This document shows, piece by piece, positions 3,113 to 24,475 of a DNA stretch of 31,890 bases. The notes below the pieces were generated by a model. The model ran no database searches. It was not told the origin of the DNA and saw only the letters and a program-made list of their open reading frames with translations. The position numbers were made by a program, and so were the translations under genes. Each line of letters begins with the position of its first letter. Position 1 is the first letter of the stretch. The stretch spans positions 1 through 31,890 of the IMG/VR virus record IMGVR_UViG_3300043414_000251. The stretch is one strand, 5' to 3'. The DNA comes from a virus (Duplodnaviria > Caudoviricetes).

Positions 3113-3118
3113 TCCTTG

Positions 3119-3144
3119 AGGCATGGTTCGCCATGCCTTTTTTT
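3119..3144 (+). terminator. Rho-independent terminator
   Basis: AGGCATGG-TTCG-CCATGCCT perfect 8-bp stem followed by a T-tract, directly after the stop at 3112. Confidence 0.9.
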
Positions 3145-3177
3145 GTATCTAATGAATTTCTTATTTAAGGAAATAAA

Positions 3178-3561
3178 ATGCTATCAGGATTAGAAATACT
3201 ACTGGCCCGAATGAAAGATTATCCCGAAGAGTTTACCAACCCAGATGGGGTATGGAGAAGAATGATTAAGGATGTATTACCCTATCTCGATAAAGACGAG
3301 ATGGTGGCGCTGGAGTATGGGATTAAAGAGATCATGCGCGATAAGTTCAATGAGTCGGTTCTCAGCCAACTAGCGGGGGTAGGAGTGCAGCAACCCGAAC
3401 AAGGGAAGTCAGCAAGCGTCATTGCATCAACCGCAATGAAACAACAGGCTTTAGCCAAACAGTCTTTAGCCATGATGAACGCGCAGTTCGATCATGAGTA
3501 TAAGAAGTATGACGCACAGCGGAACCAAGCTTTCAACCCGTACAACGTATTCAAGCCATGA
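3178..3561 (+). CDS. hypothetical protein (127 aa)
   Basis: TAAGGA SD upstream; ATGA overlap with the polymerase start. Confidence 0.8.
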   Translation: MLSGLEILLARMKDYPEEFTNPDGVWRRMIKDVLPYLDKDEMVALEYGIKEIMRDKFNESVLSQLAGVGVQQPEQGKSASVIASTAMKQQALAKQSLAMMNAQFDHEYKKYDAQRNQAFNPYNVFKP

Positions 3562-6257
3562 AAATCATCACTGTTGACTTTGAGACGTACTACACCAAGG
3601 GGCTTGGGTTTAAGACTCAGACCACCGAGGAATATGTACGTGACCGCCGCTTTGAGGTGATAGGTGTTAGTGTCAAGGTTGATGACGAGCCAGCGGCTTG
3701 GTTCTCAGGGACTAAGGACGAGATTCGTAAATACCTGTCCACGTACCCGTGGGACACTAATGCACTTCTTTGCCACAACACGCTGTTTGACGGTTGCATC
3801 CTTGGCTGGCATTTCGGTGTGGTTCCCGCGCTCATGCTGGATACGCTGTGCATGGCTAGGGCAGTCCACGGAGTTGAGGCAGGTGGGTCACTGGCATCGC
3901 TTGCCTTACGTTACGGCCTTGGTGAAAAAGGCACGGAAGTCATAGCTGCTGAAGGCAAGCGTAGACAAGACTTTACTGAAGAAGAACTTAGGCGATATGG
4001 TGAGTACTGTATCAATGACGTAGAGCTTACTTACAAGCTTTGGAAATGTTTGTCGAGCGCGTTTCCGACTGATGAGTTAGGCCTCATTGATATGACGCTA
4101 CGCATGTTTACTCATCCGGTGTTCATGGTTGATGATGCGCTGTTACAGGATAGGGCGACAGAAATTGAGGAAGACAAACTGGCGCTGTTGGAAAACTTGA
4201 TGGGCGCGTTGCACTGCAATGATGCTGAGGGTGTTCGCAAGAAGCTAGCTAGTAACAAGCAGTTCGCAGCAATACTGGAGACGTTCAAAATCCCAGTACC
4301 TATGAAGACTAGCAAGACCACGGGCAAGCAGACCTTTGCGTTGGCAAAAAATGACGAGGGGTTCTTGGCGCTGATGGAAGATGAGAATGAGTTTATCCAA
4401 CAGTTGTGTACTGTTCGGCTGGGCACTAAGTCAACCATTGAAGAGTCACGCATTGAGAGATTTATAGCTGTTGGCAAACGCAACAAAGGGTTTCTACCTA
4501 TACCCTTAAAGTACTACGGCGCACACACAGGCCGTTGGGCTGGCATGGATAAGGTGAACTTCCAGAACCTTCCATCAAGAGATAAAAAGAAGAAGACGTT
4601 GAAGAATTCAGTCATTCCGCCCGACGGTCATGTGGTCATCAACTGTGACTCTTCTCAAATTGAGGCTAGGGTGCTTGTGTGGCTGGCTGGGCAGAAAGAC
4701 GTGACAGAGCAGTTTGCTAACGGTGATGATGTGTACTCAGTGTTTGCAAGCAAGATATACGGGCGTCCCGTGTCCAAAGCTAACCCTATCGAGCGTTTTG
4801 TAGGCAAGACTTGTATTGCCGAAGGAACTCTAGTATTATCCGATTCGGGGTGGAAGCCAATTGAGTTAGTGACCACAGCAGACAAACTTTGGGACGGAGA
4901 GGAATGGATATGCCATCAAGGATTAGTGAACAACGGCATCAAACCAACATTGAATCTATGCGGAGCTTGGTTGACTCCCGATCACCAAGTGTGGTCAGGG
5001 ATGCAGTGGTTGGAAGCGCAATTGGTGGTAGCCGACGAAAATATCCTTTGCCAAGTATTGGATACCGCAGTGGGAAACTTACCGTTACAGGCTACTTTCG
5101 CGGACAGAGGGGAGGCGTTGCTGCGCTTGTTGTCAAATGTGACTGCCGACCCGACGAGTACTGCGTGGACAACCATAATTTCAAAAATTTCAAAAGCACG
5201 CGCTGTCCGTTTTGTGCCAAAACTGCTTCAAACAAAAAACGGTACTGGATGTATTCGGACGCAATGGTTGACGACGGACACCGAACCCGACTTCTCAATC
5301 GACTGGCTGCTGCCATCACACGATGTCACACCCCAACCAATAAAGCATATCTTCACTATGGAGGACGGGGTATATCGGTACATAAACAATGGAGAGAGAA
5401 CAGAGCCTCGTTTCTTTGCTATGTACAAACGCTTGAAGGATGGGATGTCCCAAGTTTTGAAATGGACAGGATTGATGTCAACGGCAGTTACGAGCCGGAC
5501 AATATCCAATTTGTGTCCCGAAGTGACAACCTTAAAAACAAGCGAAAAATCGCAGACCTTGAAGCCCGTATTCGACATCTTGAATTGCGGCTCTCGCAAC
5601 AGATTCACCATCCTAACTGAGGCAGGGCCAGTCATTGTTCACAACTGCATACTTGGCCTCGGCTATGGGACTGGGGCATTAAAGTTACAGCACACGTTAA
5701 AGACTACCCCGCCGGGAGCTATCGTTACTGAGGATGAGGCTAAAGAATATGTTAAGACATACCGCGAAGCCAACGATAAAGTGATTCAGCTATGGCGTGA
5801 TGGTGACAAGGTACTCAAAGACTTAGCCAACTGGGGCGACACCAAGTCTTACTACTACGGCAAGAACAAGTGCTTAAAGGTGACTAAGGAAGGCATCCAA
5901 CTGCCTAACGATCTGTACATCCGCTACCCCGAGTTGAAACTTGATACTGAAAAATCTAAAAGCCAATACAAGTACAAGTCGCGTAAAGGACCTGTTTACA
6001 TCTGGGGCGGTTCAGTTGTTGAAAACGTAGTTCAAGCCTTGGCTAGGATTGTCGTCGGTGAACAGATGCTGAAGATTAACCAACGCTATCGCGTGGCGTT
6101 GACCGTACACGATGCGGCGGTATGTGTGGTTCCCGAAGCTGAACTAAATGAGGCTGTAGCTTATATCGTCGAGTGCATGTCTGTGGCTCCCGATTGGGCT
6201 AGTGGTTTACCCGTAGCTTGCGAAGAAAAACACGCAAACAGCTACGGAGAGTGTTAA
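3558..6257 (+). CDS. polA: DNA polymerase family A (3'-5' exonuclease + polymerase), intein-containing precursor of 899 aa; ~621 aa after splicing
   Basis: ExoI VDFETY, ExoII HNTLFD, ExoIII YCINDV; HTGRWAG..NFQNLP; motif A DSSQIEAR; motif B rebuilt after intein removal as RFVGKT/CILGLGYG; motif C TVHDA. Confidence 0.95.
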   Translation: MKIITVDFETYYTKGLGFKTQTTEEYVRDRRFEVIGVSVKVDDEPAAWFSGTKDEIRKYLSTYPWDTNALLCHNTLFDGCILGWHFGVVPALMLDTLCMARAVHGVEAGGSLASLALRYGLGEKGTEVIAAEGKRRQDFTEEELRRYGEYCINDVELTYKLWKCLSSAFPTDELGLIDMTLRMFTHPVFMVDDALLQDRATEIEEDKLALLENLMGALHCNDAEGVRKKLASNKQFAAILETFKIPVPMKTSKTTGKQTFALAKNDEGFLALMEDENEFIQQLCTVRLGTKSTIEESRIERFIAVGKRNKGFLPIPLKYYGAHTGRWAGMDKVNFQNLPSRDKKKKTLKNSVIPPDGHVVINCDSSQIEARVLVWLAGQKDVTEQFANGDDVYSVFASKIYGRPVSKANPIERFVGKTCIAEGTLVLSDSGWKPIELVTTADKLWDGEEWICHQGLVNNGIKPTLNLCGAWLTPDHQVWSGMQWLEAQLVVADENILCQVLDTAVGNLPLQATFADRGEALLRLLSNVTADPTSTAWTTIISKISKARAVRFVPKLLQTKNGTGCIRTQWLTTDTEPDFSIDWLLPSHDVTPQPIKHIFTMEDGVYRYINNGERTEPRFFAMYKRLKDGMSQVLKWTGLMSTAVTSRTISNLCPEVTTLKTSEKSQTLKPVFDILNCGSRNRFTILTEAGPVIVHNCILGLGYGTGALKLQHTLKTTPPGAIVTEDEAKEYVKTYREANDKVIQLWRDGDKVLKDLANWGDTKSYYYGKNKCLKVTKEGIQLPNDLYIRYPELKLDTEKSKSQYKYKSRKGPVYIWGGSVVENVVQALARIVVGEQMLKINQRYRVALTVHDAAVCVVPEAELNEAVAYIVECMSVAPDWASGLPVACEEKHANSYGEC
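4812..5645 (+). mobile_element. Intein (278 aa, precursor residues 419-696) inserted in polymerase motif B
   Basis: Block A CIAEGTLVLSDSG starts with Cys1 (TGT 4812); block B LTPDH (TxxH); block F PVFDILNCG..NRFTI; block G VIVHN followed by extein Cys+1 (TGC 5646). Removal restores a contiguous KTCILGLGYG. Confidence 0.95.
4910..5620 (+). CDS. HNH-type (beta-beta-alpha-Me) homing endonuclease encoded out of frame, entirely inside the intein
   Basis: Frame offset +2/-1 relative to polA (track ORF 4889-5620). Motifs G.R.GKLTV...VKCDC...RCPFC...RC......Y.HYGGRGISV...W...F...MDRIDVNGSYEPDNIQFVSRSDNLKNKR match a common phage HNH family. GGAGAGGA (4896-4903) precedes ATG 4910; ATG 4904 and GTG 5006 are alternative starts. 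Confidence 0.85.
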   Translation: MPSRISEQRHQTNIESMRSLVDSRSPSVVRDAVVGSAIGGSRRKYPLPSIGYRSGKLTVTGYFRGQRGGVAALVVKCDCRPDEYCVDNHNFKNFKSTRCPFCAKTASNKKRYWMYSDAMVDDGHRTRLLNRLAAAITRCHTPTNKAYLHYGGRGISVHKQWRENRASFLCYVQTLEGWDVPSFEMDRIDVNGSYEPDNIQFVSRSDNLKNKRKIADLEARIRHLELRLSQQIHHPN

Positions 6258-17140: not shown

Positions 17141-17318
17141 GTGGCTGTTCCCGTTTAGCGGCATGGGGATCGGAGATAGCTTCTTCATCCCCACCCTTCG
17201 CTTTGCCGAGATGATCTATGCACTAGATTGCGGAGCTAAGCGTGAGGGTATTCTAGTTAAGTCATACATCACCCACAAGGATGCCCACCTCGGGGTGCGT
17301 ACTTGGCGCGTTCGTTAG
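17121..17318 (+). CDS. small conserved phage protein (65 aa)
   Basis: FPFSGMGIGDSFFIP...GVRTWRV motif; last gene of the + arm. Confidence 0.75.
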   Translation: MMILEPEWLFPFSGMGIGDSFFIPTLRFAEMIYALDCGAKREGILVKSYITHKDAHLGVRTWRVR

Positions 17319-20300
17319 GGTTCTATACCGTATGCCTTAACAGTAGTAATCAACTCATGCTTAGCCATGTTTTGCTGAAGGATGTTTACTCGTAATAGCT
17401 GTTGCTTCAATTTAGGTGAGAACTCGCTGGTGCGTATCTCATTTGCTTCAGCGCGAAGCCTATTTATATTAGCTACTTCTGAGCTATACAGTCCAACTGC
17501 AGCATCTGCCATTGGGTTGTTTGTAGTAAATCTAGCGTAAGCCACTGGGTCTTTTTCGCTTAGCGTTTTTATCCGCTGGCTTAAATCTTTAATTTTAGTT
17601 TCTACAGATGTAAACTCGCGCGAGTCAACATTGGACTTAGACCCAAAGAACGAACCAAGCAGTATTAAGTCTGACTTAGGATTGAAAATTTTCTCGCCCT
17701 TAATTAAATTTGTCCAGCTATAGCTAGTCTCTGCTACTCTAGATAGGCCATCCAGATAACTATTAGCAAAGAAATACATAGTGTTAGGACTCATATCCCA
17801 TGCACCTTGCGTAGTTGAGTACACTTGCTGCGCAGCGTCTTTATAGATATCAGGAATCTTGTCGCCGCCTGTGAACGCCTCACCATACTTACGAGTATTG
17901 GCGCTGTTGATAGCTTGACCGATACCGTTCGTGTTCATGAAGTATTCAAACATGGGACGCAGCACAGAAGGCGTAATACTATCTATCGCCCATTTTCCGG
18001 GAGAGTCAGTAGGTGGTATTCTAGAGATTGGGATAGGCAAGAACGAGTCAGATAGAATCGACATGCCAATATTCCCAAACGCTTGCTTCCACGAAGCCTG
18101 CCCATGCACCATACCGCCAATCTGTGCGCCTACGGCAGCAAACGCGCCAAGCCCAAAACCCCACGGCATCTGCAGCACAACGTCTTTAGCGTCTTTGCCA
18201 AATATCTCTTTAGCTACATCGTTAGGTAGATGGAACCTAAGAAACTTAGTCCACTGCTGCATGTCATCAGAACGGGTAGAGTTGCGTTTCCATTCATCAT
18301 CAGGAGCCATCATTATTGACATCAAGTAGGTAACATACCCCATGCCAATCAAAGCCCCTGTCATTATTTGTGCGTTGGTGCGTAGCTTCTTGTAGTTTGC
18401 TAAGTACTCCGCTTTAGCTACTTTATTATCTTGGATGTTGCCGGGCATTTGCCGCTTCATCATCTCTTCAGTCATGAACGCAGGAGCCACAGTCTCAATA
18501 GCCCGCGCAGCGCCCATTGCCGCAGGTCGGAAGAACATATAAGCAGCGCCAAGTTCACGCCCAATTGCACCCACTTTTCCGAAGTTAGCTAGGTTTAGGG
18601 TCTCTGCCGCAGCCTGCACCGCCGCAGATTCCTCTGCTGGCGACATTTTATCATTCTTACCTTTTTGGTCAGACATACCAGCGGCTATGTTTGCTGCATA
18701 CATCTTCTCTTTGAACAGTGAATACGCCGCCGTGCGGCTTGTAAATTCAAACATACCGCTCCACGTATCAGCAAACGCATTAAGCTGATCTAAGCTAGCT
18801 AGAATTTTATTACGCCCAATCTTTGACAGTTTTTCATAGTTAGCTTTTAAAGCCATGCTGTCTATGTAGGATGACTTACCACCAAAACGCAGCATCTCTA
18901 GCATGTCTTTCACAAACGGGTCTTTATCTGCCATATCAAGCAGTTGTTTACGACTAGCCGCATCACCCTTTTCATGCAAGGAAGCTACCAACCACGCTTT
19001 ACCGAGGCCGTTACGCATGACGCTATAGGCGACATCTTTAATATAAACAAGCGCGCTAAGAGGCCCGAACTGACCCCCACCAATATTCCATGCGTTGGTC
19101 AACATATCAACAACGAAGTTCTTAGGCGCAAAGTTCCAGTTGTACCGGGTGTGCATCGAGCCAATCCACGACGTGATGTTGTTAGCTAAATTAAGTGTTA
19201 CGTTGTTCTTCTTGTATGAATACCGAATTGCCGCAGCTAATTTAGGTTCATATATCCTAATAACATCTATAGAACCATCTTCATTACGGTGAAATATAGT
19301 ATTATTACTACCTTTATACTGCAACAATTTAGAAGTCTCATACTCAGCAAATGGTATGTTCTCAACTACTTCAGCGTTGATAATTCCCGTACCATTAGGA
19401 TTTTTCTCCTTATCTTGCTTAGCTGAGTTTTTAAGCGCTTCAGTGGCGTTAACCACTCCAGCACGATGCGCTGCGCGGAAAGAATCATACATAACCTGTA
19501 GGATAGGATTATCCGACACAGTAGAACGCCCACTAGTAGCATATTCATGGTCTACCAGTGTTTTGTTTCTACCTTCAGTGATGCGGTTAGGATCAATATA
19601 TTTATCCATTACATGAGCGTCTTCGGTTTCTTTAAACTTTGACAGCCCCTTGAATGGCATGTAGTGCTGATAGTTATACATACCCAACAAGTTATCCACG
19701 GGGGTAGACCAAAAATTACCTATCTGATTAAGTTCTTTGGTGGCGTCAGTCAATGCCTTAACTGAAGTAAAAATCTTCTGTATAGCATCTTTATGTTCTT
19801 GCGGCATTGCATCGTACTGCTGCCTACGAAGAGCTACTTCGCCTTTGTCAATACCAAGCACGTTGTATATACCGTCATCCTTCTTTAGGCCTATACCCGC
19901 TTTTTTGTTCTCCGCGCTAAACGTAAGGCCTCTAGGAGAATAACCGTTGTAGTCAGCATGCGTATTTGCAAGCCCTGTAAGGAGGTTCCAGAAATTCTTT
20001 TTCTGTGCGTCAGTCAATTTGTATTTATGGATAATCCCCGACGCTCCAGTAGAAGGGTCACCCAAGATTGCTGTACGTACATCAGCCGCACCCATTTGTT
20101 TACCAAGGAATGACACTAATTTTGGTCCCGTAGGTTCTTTAGCAAGCGGCACGGTGGTAACAAACTTAACAGTGCGGCGCTCATCCTCGCTAAACATCTC
20201 AGCCAACATGTGGATATCTATAAACGTCTCATTCGTATTACCATCCTTAGCCATGTTGGCATAGTCTTGGAAAGATTCCTTGAGGTCTTTTAGCGGCTCA

Positions 20301-23300
20301 GACAGATAGTGGGTAATGTAGTTCTGGATTACGGACGTAGATGTATCCGACAACTCAGTGAAGTTATTGAATGCTTTAGATACATCACGATCAACTTTAC
20401 CGCCCAAATCTTGGCGCATGTAGTGACTTCTAGCTTCGTATGTTTTATCCGTAGTCAGACGCGCAATGTTCCTCCACCCAGCAGTGCTAAATAGGCTTTT
20501 AAACAAGCCACCATCTTCCGACTTACCGGTCTCTTTTTCAGTAGGAGCATATGCATCACGAAGACTCGCATCATCAAGGCCACCTTTGCGGGTGGGTGCT
20601 TTAATTGATGGCTTATTCTTAGCGGATAGTTGGTCAAGATAGATAGGCTCTGTCGGCACAGCAAGAATGCTATCAAAAGCAACAGCTGTTTCTACTAGCA
20701 AACTTTGTTTTACACCGGGAATAAGATTACCAGTTTTAGTAAATAGGTTTTTACCAACTTTAAGAATTTTTGCAATACCCAATGTAAATGCTGACCAAGC
20801 AGATTTATTACCCGGCAGTATAGACATTAACTGCTTAGTAGGGTCATCAAGTTTTTGTTCAAATGCCAAACCTTCAGCTAAAGCGGGGTCATGCAAATCT
20901 GCTTGAAATGTTTCATCAGTTAGCGCATAAGCTGTAAACTCAAATATATTTTCGTATGCGCGAGGATGTTCCTCTTGCAGCACCCCTTTAGTAGCATTCA
21001 TAATATTAATGAGATGCTCAACGCCGCGAATTTGTTCTGGAGTAAGTAGTTTTAATCGACCCATTGTGTAGTCGTTAAGGACTTTTACAGTAGCAGCATG
21101 AACTACTTCGTGCAAAACTACACCATTAGTTAAACCGTCAGCAGTAATAAAAATAGCATCTTTAACCGGGTCATATATAGCTAAATCGCCACCGGGCAAG
21201 CTTTCTACGTAGCTAATAGTCGTTTTCAAATTCATTAAGAATATTGACTGAGCTACTTCTTTAAGTATTTTCTTGCCAAGGGTCATCTCTTGCCCAGTAG
21301 CTTTAACACTACCCAATGTACGTAGGTATTGCAAAACTCCTTTTAAGTCATTGCTTTTAACCATTTGAACTACATTACTGGGCAGCACACTATTTGCCAT
21401 ACCTGATATAACGCTGGGTGTGTTACCCATAATCTGGTTAAACCGTTGCGTATCTCTTTCATGTTTAGCGCGGCGCTCTTCATAGAGCTTAGTCTCTACC
21501 GCAATCTGTTGCTGTATCAACGCAAAGTTATCAGCAGCTTTCTTTTTGGCAGTGGCATCCATACCCCCTGCTTCACTTAATAGATGTACACCTAAATCAG
21601 CAAAGGCAGCATCTTGAAATATTCCAGCGCCGGTATATGTATACGTTTCTTTATTTGTAATTGGGTCAATATTTATCTGTACTACTTTATTTAGATAAAC
21701 AAGTTTTGCTTCTTTAGATAAGTCGCCCCAACGTGGAAATTTTAATGGAAATATACGGCTATACGAAGCACGATTTTCTTCGTAAGCATTGGCTACCCTA
21801 CGTTCAGTGGGTGACATTTTTTCTGTGCCATATCCACGTGAACGAGAATTTTGTTCTTTTCTATATTTACGCAAAACCTCAGCAGCTACAGCATGTTCAG
21901 CTAAAGAGTTTTTCTTTATTTGGCTAAAATAAACATCTTTTTCATCAGCGCCCAGCCTGTGCCATTCAGGCATTTCTGATTGTTCACTACCGTAATCTGT
22001 CAATGCTTGGGAAATAGACCGCAGTTGCGCGCGTATTGCGTCTTCTTGCTTAGCTACGGCATCGGACTGCTCGAGTAATTCAATTTCACGTGGAGACAAC
22101 TCAAGCGATTTGGTTTTACGCTTCGCGTTTTCAGCTTTATTTACCTCATCGCCTTGGGCATCCAGTGCCGCGCGCTTTTCTTCCAGCACAGCTAATTGTT
22201 TAGCAAGCTCATCGTGCTGTTTTGCAAGCTCTGCGCGTTTTGCGTTATCTTCTTTGACCTTAGCATTTACTTGTTCGCGGGTATCGTTATAAAGTTCTTC
22301 CGTATTTGCAGGGATATTTTCTTGCTCATACTTAGGCTCGCCACGGGCACCTGCTTCTTTTTGATTTTCCCTACGTTGTTTTCTTTCATCCAACAAAGTT
22401 TGGTATTGATCTTGAGGTTCTTGAAGCGTTACATTGGTAGGTTTACTTTGCTCTTCCTTTAATGCTTTAGTAAGCTGGTTAATTTTATACTTTGAACTAG
22501 TCTGCTGGGCGTCATCCAACTGCGTTTGCAAATCAGCAATGCGCGCTTCATCCCTATATTGATATACATTTGAGGTAGCTTTAGTGCCAACTTCTTCAGT
22601 CTGACCTGTAACCTGCTGTTCTTTATAAGGGCCGGGGCTAACATCAAGCAGTTTTTTGCCACCCTGCATAGGGTATGGCCTTAGCGGTGAACCTTTAAAT
22701 TGAATCAAGCTAGTATCTACCGTAGTTTCTTCTACTGGCTTTTTAGCGCTAAGTACCTGCGTAGGCAACCCCACGGATTCTTTATACTTACTAAGATTTT
22801 CTTTAGCTTTTTTAATTGAGTTCTCTGGAGCGCCATTGTCTTCAAGGACCCCTATAGCTTCTACACGCCGATTAATTTCATTTTGAATTTCAGGAGTAAT
22901 TGTTGGCGCGGTATCTACATCTGTGGCTGTGGACGTTTGTTGTCCTTGCGACGTTGTTTGCTGGGTTTGAGCGGTTTCATCGACATTAGTGGTTCCAGTT
23001 AAGTCAGGGATATCAGTGAGTTCTTCTTCGATAGGGGCAGCATTTTTCTTATCCATGTAGTCGCGCAATGCTGCCATAGCTTTAACGCGATAATTTTCAC
23101 CTTTTGCAGCTACGGGCTTTTCAATGCCTAGCGACGTAAGCAGGGCGCTTAATTTGCCTACATTAAGTTCACCCGATTTTTTTATATCTAATTCCTTACC
23201 CTCTGGGAATTGAGTCAGAAATAGGTTTGCAAGCTCTTCTTCAGGAGGACCTTTAGGCTTAGCATTGAACGCCTTCTCTAGGTCTTCATCAGATATTTCT

Positions 23301-24475
23301 TCTTGCGTAGCTTTGGTCTTGCCTGACGGTGTAAACGCTTCTTTGTACGCATCTTCGCCTACACCAGCTTCTTTTAACTCCTTAACAGTCAGGTCTCTCT
23401 TAGCACTTGCGGCTTCTCTACCGCCAGACACAGCCCCCATGCCCAGACCAGCCAAGCCTTCTAAGGTACCCTGCCCAACAACACCCCGCATAGTGGGCAC
23501 ATCAAAGCCTAGCCGTTGCTGAGCGATGTTCTGAGCCGCCTGCTCTTGACTGCCCTGAAGTCCTTCGCCTAAGAATTCCTTACCAGCAGTAATCCCAGCC
23601 TGCTTTGCTACGCCACGTTTAGCGGCTTCCATAGTGGCTTTTTCAGTAGCCAACCTAACCGCTTCTTTTTGCGCCACGGTAGAAGCAATGCCTTTAGCAA
23701 GCTGCCGCGCTATAACAGGCTCCGCTCCACTTGCCCCACCAATCGCACCAAGCCCAATACCCAACAAAATCTGGTCTAGATTTTTACCGTCGTAAGCTTG
23801 TGCTTGAACAGCGGCCTTCTCAATCTGCGCTGGCGTCATCTCAGTTTTTTCGCTGAGAATTTGCTTAGTTGCATCGTAGATAGAGCCTTTAACCGTACCC
23901 GCGCCCATCATTGCGCCAGTACCAAGCGTTGCTGCGCCAGCTATAAGTGGTGTTCCACCAGTCAAAGTAGTAGCCAACGCAGCAGCAATAGCAGGCGCGG
24001 ATGTGCCCAACGCGTTAGCAAGCAAGTCTACGGGGGCAACGCTAAATGCTTTAGCGCCAGCAATGACGTTTTCTAAAATGCCCTTGTCTTCCGCATCCTT
24101 CATGATGCGTGCGATCTCTTGGCTATCCTTCTTAGACTGCGCGCTGTACAGATCAGCAATGTAGTTCTCAACCCCTCTAAGATTTTGAGATACAGCACTA
24201 TCTGCGCCGAACGCATCTGCCACTAAGCGGACACCAGTTACTGCACCAGCGCCAATCTTTAGCGGCACGTCAGCAAACTGGCGTGGGACTCCACCTAGGA
24301 TTTCCTTGTTTGGCTCTTGTGGAGGAACCAAAGGAGCAGCTTGAAACCCTACCTTCTGGTAGAAATCATTTACCGGTATGTCAGAGTAGAACTTACTATG
24401 TAACCCATCAACAAGCTCTTTATCCGGCAAATCATTGTACTGGGGGTACTTTTGCCGAATGTCTAGGATGTTCAT
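17315..24475 (-). CDS. giant internal virion/ejection protein (2386 aa), polyvalent type with a zincin metallopeptidase motif and an LPD38-like C-terminus
   Basis: N-terminal IRQKYPQYNDLPDKELVDGLHSKFY motif; Gly/Ala hydrophobic region; coiled coils; VVLHEVVHA with downstream EF.AYAL; C-terminal P.GFG.G...P..E...N....G..I pattern recalled as LPD38. Confidence 0.8.
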   Translation of the reverse strand: MNILDIRQKYPQYNDLPDKELVDGLHSKFYSDIPVNDFYQKVGFQAAPLVPPQEPNKEILGGVPRQFADVPLKIGAGAVTGVRLVADAFGADSAVSQNLRGVENYIADLYSAQSKKDSQEIARIMKDAEDKGILENVIAGAKAFSVAPVDLLANALGTSAPAIAAALATTLTGGTPLIAGAATLGTGAMMGAGTVKGSIYDATKQILSEKTEMTPAQIEKAAVQAQAYDGKNLDQILLGIGLGAIGGASGAEPVIARQLAKGIASTVAQKEAVRLATEKATMEAAKRGVAKQAGITAGKEFLGEGLQGSQEQAAQNIAQQRLGFDVPTMRGVVGQGTLEGLAGLGMGAVSGGREAASAKRDLTVKELKEAGVGEDAYKEAFTPSGKTKATQEEISDEDLEKAFNAKPKGPPEEELANLFLTQFPEGKELDIKKSGELNVGKLSALLTSLGIEKPVAAKGENYRVKAMAALRDYMDKKNAAPIEEELTDIPDLTGTTNVDETAQTQQTTSQGQQTSTATDVDTAPTITPEIQNEINRRVEAIGVLEDNGAPENSIKKAKENLSKYKESVGLPTQVLSAKKPVEETTVDTSLIQFKGSPLRPYPMQGGKKLLDVSPGPYKEQQVTGQTEEVGTKATSNVYQYRDEARIADLQTQLDDAQQTSSKYKINQLTKALKEEQSKPTNVTLQEPQDQYQTLLDERKQRRENQKEAGARGEPKYEQENIPANTEELYNDTREQVNAKVKEDNAKRAELAKQHDELAKQLAVLEEKRAALDAQGDEVNKAENAKRKTKSLELSPREIELLEQSDAVAKQEDAIRAQLRSISQALTDYGSEQSEMPEWHRLGADEKDVYFSQIKKNSLAEHAVAAEVLRKYRKEQNSRSRGYGTEKMSPTERRVANAYEENRASYSRIFPLKFPRWGDLSKEAKLVYLNKVVQINIDPITNKETYTYTGAGIFQDAAFADLGVHLLSEAGGMDATAKKKAADNFALIQQQIAVETKLYEERRAKHERDTQRFNQIMGNTPSVISGMANSVLPSNVVQMVKSNDLKGVLQYLRTLGSVKATGQEMTLGKKILKEVAQSIFLMNLKTTISYVESLPGGDLAIYDPVKDAIFITADGLTNGVVLHEVVHAATVKVLNDYTMGRLKLLTPEQIRGVEHLINIMNATKGVLQEEHPRAYENIFEFTAYALTDETFQADLHDPALAEGLAFEQKLDDPTKQLMSILPGNKSAWSAFTLGIAKILKVGKNLFTKTGNLIPGVKQSLLVETAVAFDSILAVPTEPIYLDQLSAKNKPSIKAPTRKGGLDDASLRDAYAPTEKETGKSEDGGLFKSLFSTAGWRNIARLTTDKTYEARSHYMRQDLGGKVDRDVSKAFNNFTELSDTSTSVIQNYITHYLSEPLKDLKESFQDYANMAKDGNTNETFIDIHMLAEMFSEDERRTVKFVTTVPLAKEPTGPKLVSFLGKQMGAADVRTAILGDPSTGASGIIHKYKLTDAQKKNFWNLLTGLANTHADYNGYSPRGLTFSAENKKAGIGLKKDDGIYNVLGIDKGEVALRRQQYDAMPQEHKDAIQKIFTSVKALTDATKELNQIGNFWSTPVDNLLGMYNYQHYMPFKGLSKFKETEDAHVMDKYIDPNRITEGRNKTLVDHEYATSGRSTVSDNPILQVMYDSFRAAHRAGVVNATEALKNSAKQDKEKNPNGTGIINAEVVENIPFAEYETSKLLQYKGSNNTIFHRNEDGSIDVIRIYEPKLAAAIRYSYKKNNVTLNLANNITSWIGSMHTRYNWNFAPKNFVVDMLTNAWNIGGGQFGPLSALVYIKDVAYSVMRNGLGKAWLVASLHEKGDAASRKQLLDMADKDPFVKDMLEMLRFGGKSSYIDSMALKANYEKLSKIGRNKILASLDQLNAFADTWSGMFEFTSRTAAYSLFKEKMYAANIAAGMSDQKGKNDKMSPAEESAAVQAAAETLNLANFGKVGAIGRELGAAYMFFRPAAMGAARAIETVAPAFMTEEMMKRQMPGNIQDNKVAKAEYLANYKKLRTNAQIMTGALIGMGYVTYLMSIMMAPDDEWKRNSTRSDDMQQWTKFLRFHLPNDVAKEIFGKDAKDVVLQMPWGFGLGAFAAVGAQIGGMVHGQASWKQAFGNIGMSILSDSFLPIPISRIPPTDSPGKWAIDSITPSVLRPMFEYFMNTNGIGQAINSANTRKYGEAFTGGDKIPDIYKDAAQQVYSTTQGAWDMSPNTMYFFANSYLDGLSRVAETSYSWTNLIKGEKIFNPKSDLILLGSFFGSKSNVDSREFTSVETKIKDLSQRIKTLSEKDPVAYARFTTNNPMADAAVGLYSSEVANINRLRAEANEIRTSEFSPKLKQQLLRVNILQQNMAKHELITTVKAYGIEP

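Follow-up and report, generated by a model that had tools for sequence, protein, structure and literature searches.

Inteins whose endonuclease is encoded out of frame with the splicing domains have been described recently. According to the consulted passages of the preprint by Gosselin, Arsenault and Gogarten (bioRxiv 10.1101/2025.01.02.630785), certain actinobacteriophage inteins carry an endonuclease VII-like gene in frame 3, and others carry antisense endonuclease genes; the authors propose that a free-standing endonuclease gene invaded the intein, and their survey called the layout rare. An out-of-frame HNH gene hidden in a phage DNA methylase is known as the ShiLan domain (Arsenault et al. 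2025, PMC11855218), and the fractured genes of Dassa et al. (2009, PMC2677866) combine split inteins with a free-standing endonuclease. Here, we analyzed the virus record IMGVR_UViG_3300043414_000251 (Duplodnaviria; Caudoviricetes), a linear sequence of 31,890 bases that is roughly half complete and includes phage genes for replication and the virion; the whole record is referred to as the window. Its family A DNA polymerase gene (polA) contains an intein, and within the intein lies a separate, conserved gene in the +2 (-1) frame, which likely has its own start in the polymerase mRNA and likely encodes a homing nuclease that spreads the intein. We assign this reading a probability of roughly 0.7. 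As in the inteins of Gosselin et al., the intein is contiguous, its in-frame interior is predicted to be unstructured, and a putative nuclease of the beta-beta-alpha type is encoded in frame 3 of the same strand. The first-pass annotation of this DNA took such an architecture to be undescribed; the architecture itself is not new, given the 2025 preprint, the open reading frame (ORF) already annotated in phages SO-1 and LPSE1, and a cousin in APSE-1.

The intein is inserted in what we take to be the motif B region of the polymerase. Its splicing blocks, which had been called intact, are all present: Cys1, the block B sequence TPDH (residues 55-58), the block F residue Asp255, the terminal His277-Asn278 pair and Cys+1. 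Cys1, Thr55, His58, Asp255 and Asn278 are invariant in the 61 aligned sequences. Together with the absence of the insertion from orthologues, these residues agree with a class 1 intein. Structure prediction and profile matches gave the distribution that had been anticipated, with a Hint fold, built from both ends of the intein, in the polymerase frame alone and an HNH-like protein in the +2 frame alone. The conservation of the splicing residues in an essential gene suggests that the intein undergoes protein splicing. No canonical in-frame endonuclease was found between blocks B and F, where residues 96-244 are predicted to be unfolded and evolve at a ratio of nonsynonymous to synonymous substitution rates (dN/dS) of 1.38. 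This linker measures about 150 residues and not the 185 or so given earlier for the interior; it is rich in Thr, Ser, Ala and Leu. The match to the PHROG93 'endonuclease' profile (E 7e-16) covers profile columns 3-218 and not columns 352-440, the part matched by a separate 95-residue gene of the window; intein sequence has likely been carried into that profile.

The +2 frame of the intein is open for 251 codons (4865-5617), between an upstream stop at 4862 and the terminal stop at 5618-5620. Elsewhere in the window, over 12 coding stretches totalling 7,618 codons, the same frame meets a stop every nine codons or so, and its longest open run is 65 codons. The first-pass annotation placed the ORF at 4889/4910-5620, wholly within the intein interior; the open frame was recovered, but the TTG at 4889 has no Shine-Dalgarno (SD) signal before it, the best start is the ATG at 4910 (that at 4904 being possible), and the ORF overlaps blocks B and F. 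The match to an HNH-like family is confined to the +2 frame, while the endonuclease VII family PHROG1035 is matched with an E value of only 4e-4. In BFVD, the predicted fold matches proteins annotated, though not assayed, as HNH endonucleases (E 3e-10). Among solved nucleases, the model has no strong match, and that to PacI is weak. The minus strand of the intein also contains an ORF of 135 residues (5228-5635), which is probably a shadow, since the open antisense lengths differ widely among ten cultured-phage inteins.

The 80 best of the 329 relatives returned by a profile search of viral contigs with the nested protein were retained. Each sits within a polymerase intein and has the +2 offset of the window; no in-frame or free-standing relative occurs among these best 80 of 329. 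After removal of duplicates, truncated loci and +1-type loci, the comparison set comprised 70 distinct complete inteins, including that of the window. The polymerase frame is open in all of them, and the nested frame is open from its start in 68, the exceptions being L139 (an internal stop) and L168 (an early stop). Codons 1-30 of the 70 inteins contain 134 stops in the +2 frame, against 2 in codons 31-260. Cultured phages, chiefly of Salmonella, account for 192 matching records, and 164 of these span 80% or more of the intein; reading the nested frame in SETP3, Ent3, T102, EP23, SO-1 and MR14 showed it to be intact in each.

We estimated dN/dS by the Nei-Gojobori method in 18 disjoint pairs (36 of the 70 sequences, 73-96% identical), with a bootstrap over pairs; applied to overlapping frames, these simple ratios are indicative only. 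Upstream of the nested start, dN/dS was 0.19 in the polymerase frame and 1.89 in the nested frame, and from 4910 to 5056, the values were 0.32 and 0.58. In the core (5057-5545), the relation is reversed, with 1.38 (1.20-1.62) in the polymerase frame and 0.15 (0.12-0.17) in the nested frame, while from 5546 to 5617, the ratios were 0.48 and 0.57, respectively. These values indicate that the nested gene shapes the core, that the linker is its passenger, and that the overlaps with the splicing blocks are constrained in both frames. In 20,000 synonymous recodings of the nested protein, the polymerase frame was never open over 4910-5617 (mean 11.2 stops), and for the core alone, the probability of zero polymerase-frame stops was 1.5e-4, the same order as the approximately 1e-4 of the initial crude estimate. 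Stop avoidance in the polymerase frame is real, and the proposal that both frames are under selection holds, the selection differing between them.

The conserved ATG and SD signal suggest that the nested gene has a translation start of its own, as had been supposed. In the clade of the window, the codon ahead of a conserved Cys (TGC) is GTA or ATA, which creates an ATG at the 4910 position in 37 of 37 inteins; A-ending Val codons make up 29% elsewhere. The remaining 33 inteins start six bases earlier, at a Trp codon (the 4904 position), with ATG in 28, GTG in four and TTG in one, and the annotated ORF of LPSE1 begins at this offset. SD pairing of -5 kcal/mol or better precedes 70 of 70 nested starts and 13% of 871 control ATGs, counts to be read with the non-independence of related sequences and the purine-rich nature of the W-D-G motif in mind. 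No slippery heptamer is conserved across the 70 inteins (at most 5 of 70 share one), and no internal promoter stands out. Based on the sequences, internal initiation on the polymerase mRNA would be the simplest reading.

The HNH motifs enumerated in the first-pass annotation are present, but they do not form the full set claimed, because 'DRID' carries Arg in place of the catalytic His. This His, expected at the end of the first strand, is missing in all 70 inteins (DR in 69 and DS in one), the position being set by the motif and not by structural superposition. The nested protein is therefore a putative nuclease. Asp186, Tyr194, Asn198 and Asn207 are found in 70 of 70 inteins and Arg187 in 69; thus, the acidic residue (Asp186), loop Asn (Asn198) and helix metal ligand (Asn207) of the His-Me finger are present throughout. 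The invariant Tyr194 may replace the missing His, a hypothesis drawn from PacI, the His-less beta-beta-alpha restriction enzyme (PMC5714182, in the part consulted). Cys77, Cys79, Cys99 and Cys102 are putative zinc ligands.

Among the 80 nearest polymerases (75-90% identity over 110 residues), 79 have no intein and read KT-C(I/V)LG at the site. In the 110 residues that precede the site, the polymerases housing the closest inteins (67-73% identical) show 53-59% identity, and empty polymerases reach 83-90%. Additionally, empty alleles of related phages were found in runs X1 and X3, and in run X5, a 151-base contig (depth 3.7) fuses a near-identical intein end, with at most 3 differences in 65 nucleotides, to a divergent C-extein with at least 15 in 86, mostly at third positions. 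Two insertion sites lie four codons (12 nucleotides) apart, KT/CILG (site a) in 23 of the 70 inteins and ILG/CGYG (site b) in 46, with one unclassed. The element of the window is a mosaic whose ends group with site-a inteins and whose core groups with site-b inteins, to which it is 84-95% identical in DNA over the 5' half of the core; the approximately unbiased (AU) test gave p values of 6e-7 and 4e-4 with 18 of the 70 sequences, in groups picked after an identity scan. The rarity of the intein among the nearest polymerases and its mosaic structure indicate horizontal movement, and the presence of the same nuclease lineage at both sites indicates that recombination can exchange the nuclease core among inteins. 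Decayed forms also occur. In L023 (2756-3301), an in-frame deletion of 297 bases runs through the nuclease core and shortens the linker; a short TGGAC repeat marks its joint, and the equivalent of ATG 4910 is also lost. Others are L139 with its internal stop and short inteins (L029 and L030; 168 and 140 residues in two cultured phages). The sparse spread, the junctions, the mosaic and the decay forms would fit a homing cycle.

Several related loci were observed alongside this family. In L059 (2831-3676), the polymerase is 80% identical to that of the window before the site, while its intein at the same site is only 37% identical, which indicates a separate invasion of one site. The polymerases in L141 (2-2572) and L179 (1002-4200) each contain two inteins of the group, both with an out-of-frame HNH-like ORF; that of the second intein is in the +2 frame in L141 and in the +1 frame in L179, which suggests that the layout arose more than once. 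At the later GGKx(EN)/C site sits a second lineage, whose nested ORF uses the +1 frame and has no stop from offset 184 on (L011:2746-3645, L026:2501-3418 and L028:2501-3418).

The nested protein might instead be a non-nuclease, DNA-binding HNH derivative with a regulatory or exclusion role, the intein spreading by ordinary recombination. The Arg at the catalytic position (69 of 70), the existence of inactive His-Me groups that retain DNA binding (PMC5714182, in the part consulted) and the lack of a strong match to a solved nuclease could be read in this manner, and ordinary recombination may also account for the mobility pattern. Nevertheless, we consider this alternative unlikely, given the invariance of the metal-site residues and of the loop Tyr194, the DR motif shared with free-standing phage relatives and a fold resembling annotated HNH endonucleases; homing, moreover, suits the sparse, horizontal distribution and the decay products. 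A programmed -1 ribosomal frameshift, which would yield a truncated polymerase-intein-nuclease fusion and no free protein, agrees with the offset (+2 equals -1) and with one X XXY YYZ heptamer near 5073 in the window. This mechanism is very improbable, as the heptamer position is shared by just 5 of 70 inteins, the open frame begins right at the conserved ATG with its SD signal, and purifying selection on the +2 frame begins about 160 nucleotides upstream of the heptamer.

In the GenBank record of SO-1, gp38 and gp39 are annotated as a 'type I self-splicing intron', and phage polymerases with intron-encoded HNH genes are known (PMC3428280, in the part consulted). We give next to no credence to the insert being a group I intron that contains an endonuclease ORF: its length is a multiple of three and it is stop-free in 70 of 70 cases, it has the Cys1, TPDH, His-Asn and Cys+1 signature, and both the protein-level purifying selection (dN/dS 0.19) and the predicted Hint fold speak for an intein, the label that the same insert bears in the Ent3 record. 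That assembly or sequencing errors displaced an in-frame HNH domain might be suspected in a metagenomic record, the more so because one database protein, P0010, joins polymerase, intein and HNH in one frame. P0010, however, comes from a single contig, lacks block G and the polymerase C-terminus, and is frameshifted or mis-assembled. The contigs of four public runs, one of them possibly from the source sample, show no indels, and the recurrence of the same offset in independent genomes, that is, in 80 of the 80 best viral loci and in the six cultured phages named above, excludes such errors. Thus, no compensating indels, no endonuclease fold of the in-frame interior and no stop-riddled alternative frame in homologues, the three outcomes named in advance as contrary to the proposal, were found.

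The family differs from the inteins of Gosselin et al. in several respects, as far as the consulted passages of that preprint go. It is non-canonical in their sense, with an endonuclease-like ORF in another frame and the intein frame open, but its nuclease is of the DR type (PHROG374, E 6e-29) and not endonuclease VII-like (PHROG1035, E 4e-4), and its family A polymerase host is outside their host list, which names Pol III alpha. The ORFs nested in their inteins 'typically lie outside' the splicing domain; the present ORF, start included, overprints blocks B and F; those passages contain no dN/dS or start-site analysis, both of which are given here. As in ShiLan, an HNH gene occupies the third frame of a stop-free host frame, and its shadow peptide is tolerated as a loop; ShiLan, in the consulted part of PMC11855218, has no splicing domain and no SD signal, with a leaderless start proposed, in contrast to the conserved SD and ATG of this family. 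In the loci of Dassa et al. (PMC2677866, in the part consulted), the endonuclease is likewise a separate gene in the intein locus, its 3' end overlapping the C-terminal intein part, but those loci have a split intein in an interrupted host frame, whereas here the host frame is continuous.

Members of Jerseyvirus and Dhillonvirus (SETP3, Ent1/Ent3, LPSE1, SO-1 and EP23) and Pseudomonas phage MR14 belong to the same family, with the same motif and +2 offset; their inteins have 299 residues (289 in MR14), and their nested protein is about 46% identical to that of the window. The Ent3 annotation describes an intein 'encoding splicing domains' only, and the nested ORF is already a coding sequence in SO-1 (within the labelled intron) and LPSE1 (hypothetical). 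The P45 intein of APSE-1, with its nested, RefSeq-annotated P46, is a related intein with an out-of-frame HNH-like ORF (32% identity over 81 residues), but it uses the +1 frame, the site GGKS/CEN nearer the polymerase C-terminus, an ORF that starts further in and another C-terminal domain. Our literature searches, which did not reach subscription papers or preprint supplements, found no paper treating the present polymerase-intein family. The contribution of the family lies in its scale, in the overprinting of splicing blocks by a start and by terminal segments, in a nuclease core that lacks the catalytic His, and in the exchange of cores between neighbouring sites.

Table 1. Features of the polymerase locus (window positions; pLDDT, the predicted value of the local distance difference test)
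Feature	Positions	Strand	Support
Family A DNA polymerase precursor, 899 residues including the intein	3558..6257	+	Pfam DNA_pol_A E 5e-27; PHROG17 E 9e-71
Intein, 278 residues, stop-free, flanks FVGKT/CILGLGYG	4812..5645	+	Cys+1 at 5646-5648
N-terminal splicing region, residues 1-95, with Cys1 and TPDH block B at 4974-4985	4812..5096	+	pLDDT 95-97 for residues 1-90
In-frame linker, residues 96-244, predicted unfolded; shadow translation of the nested gene without stops	5097..5543	+	pLDDT about 30
C-terminal splicing region, block F Asp255 at 5574-5576, block G His-Asn at 5640-5645	5544..5645	+	pLDDT 94-96 for residues 251-278
Predicted internal ribosome-binding site GGAGAGGA (4896-4903) with ATG 4904 and ATG 4910	4896..4912	+	Spelled by intein codons D-G-E-E-W-I-C
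Nested gene, 236 residues, assigned to an HNH-like (His-Me finger-like) nuclease family, with Arg replacing the catalytic His	4910..5620	+ (+2/-1 frame)	PHROG374 E 6e-29; model pLDDT 81
Nested protein's N-terminal extension, which overprints intein block B; constraint in both frames	4910..5056	+	dN/dS per frame
Putative zinc-binding Cys77, Cys79, Cys99 and Cys102, after a small beta-barrel (residues about 47-95)	5138..5215	+	Kept in 70, 68, 70 and 70 of 70
Putative beta-beta-alpha core, D186-R187 ... Y194 ... N198 ... N207	5465..5530	+	Predicted strands 183-187 and 199-203, helix 204-231
Nested protein's C-terminal helix, a predicted coiled coil, which overprints intein block F	5546..5617	+	Helix 204-231; weak coiled-coil Pfam matches in some relatives

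Elsewhere in the window, an ORF of 2,386 residues on the minus strand (17315-24475) adjoins the virion genes and has no PHROG match, nor do the ORFs at 248-1270 (340 residues) and 1273-2184 (303 residues). A terminator-like hairpin with a T run (3118-3149) lies upstream of the gene preceding the polymerase.

The mechanism that we propose, and that is probably right, begins with a polymerase frame kept open by stop avoidance. The Hint domain is predicted to fold from both ends and to excise together with the unfolded loop, while ribosomes starting at 4910, as the conserved ATG, SD signal and stop boundary suggest, would produce the free 236-residue protein. This protein would bind and nick or cut the intein-free motif B site of a co-infecting phage, possibly with Tyr194 in place of the missing His as in PacI, and repair would then copy the element across. 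Only tentatively do we extend this to a wider proposal, in which a lineage of phage polymerase inteins that is large but has been overlooked would home by means of a nuclease that lacks the His and possibly depends on Tyr, in the manner of PacI. Overprinting of the splicing blocks would have given this nuclease its ribosome-binding site, its start codon, its first 50 residues and its C-terminal coiled coil, tying the two genes together so that no single indel fuses them, and its core would shuffle between the two neighbouring sites.

The layout that the 2025 survey called rare is the rule in this family, which has at least 329 matches in viral contigs (the best 80 examined) and some 160 records from cultured phages; in most of these records the nested gene is not annotated. 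The annotations to be corrected include inteins believed to be endonuclease-free and the 'intron' of SO-1. The locus also provides a natural example of overprinting, one that lets selection on the two frames be quantified for each segment separately. Finally, two questions become testable in laboratory phages, namely, by what route an out-of-frame endonuclease gene is expressed, and whether DNA is cut by the DR-type 'HNH' family, which is very common, in spite of its missing catalytic His.
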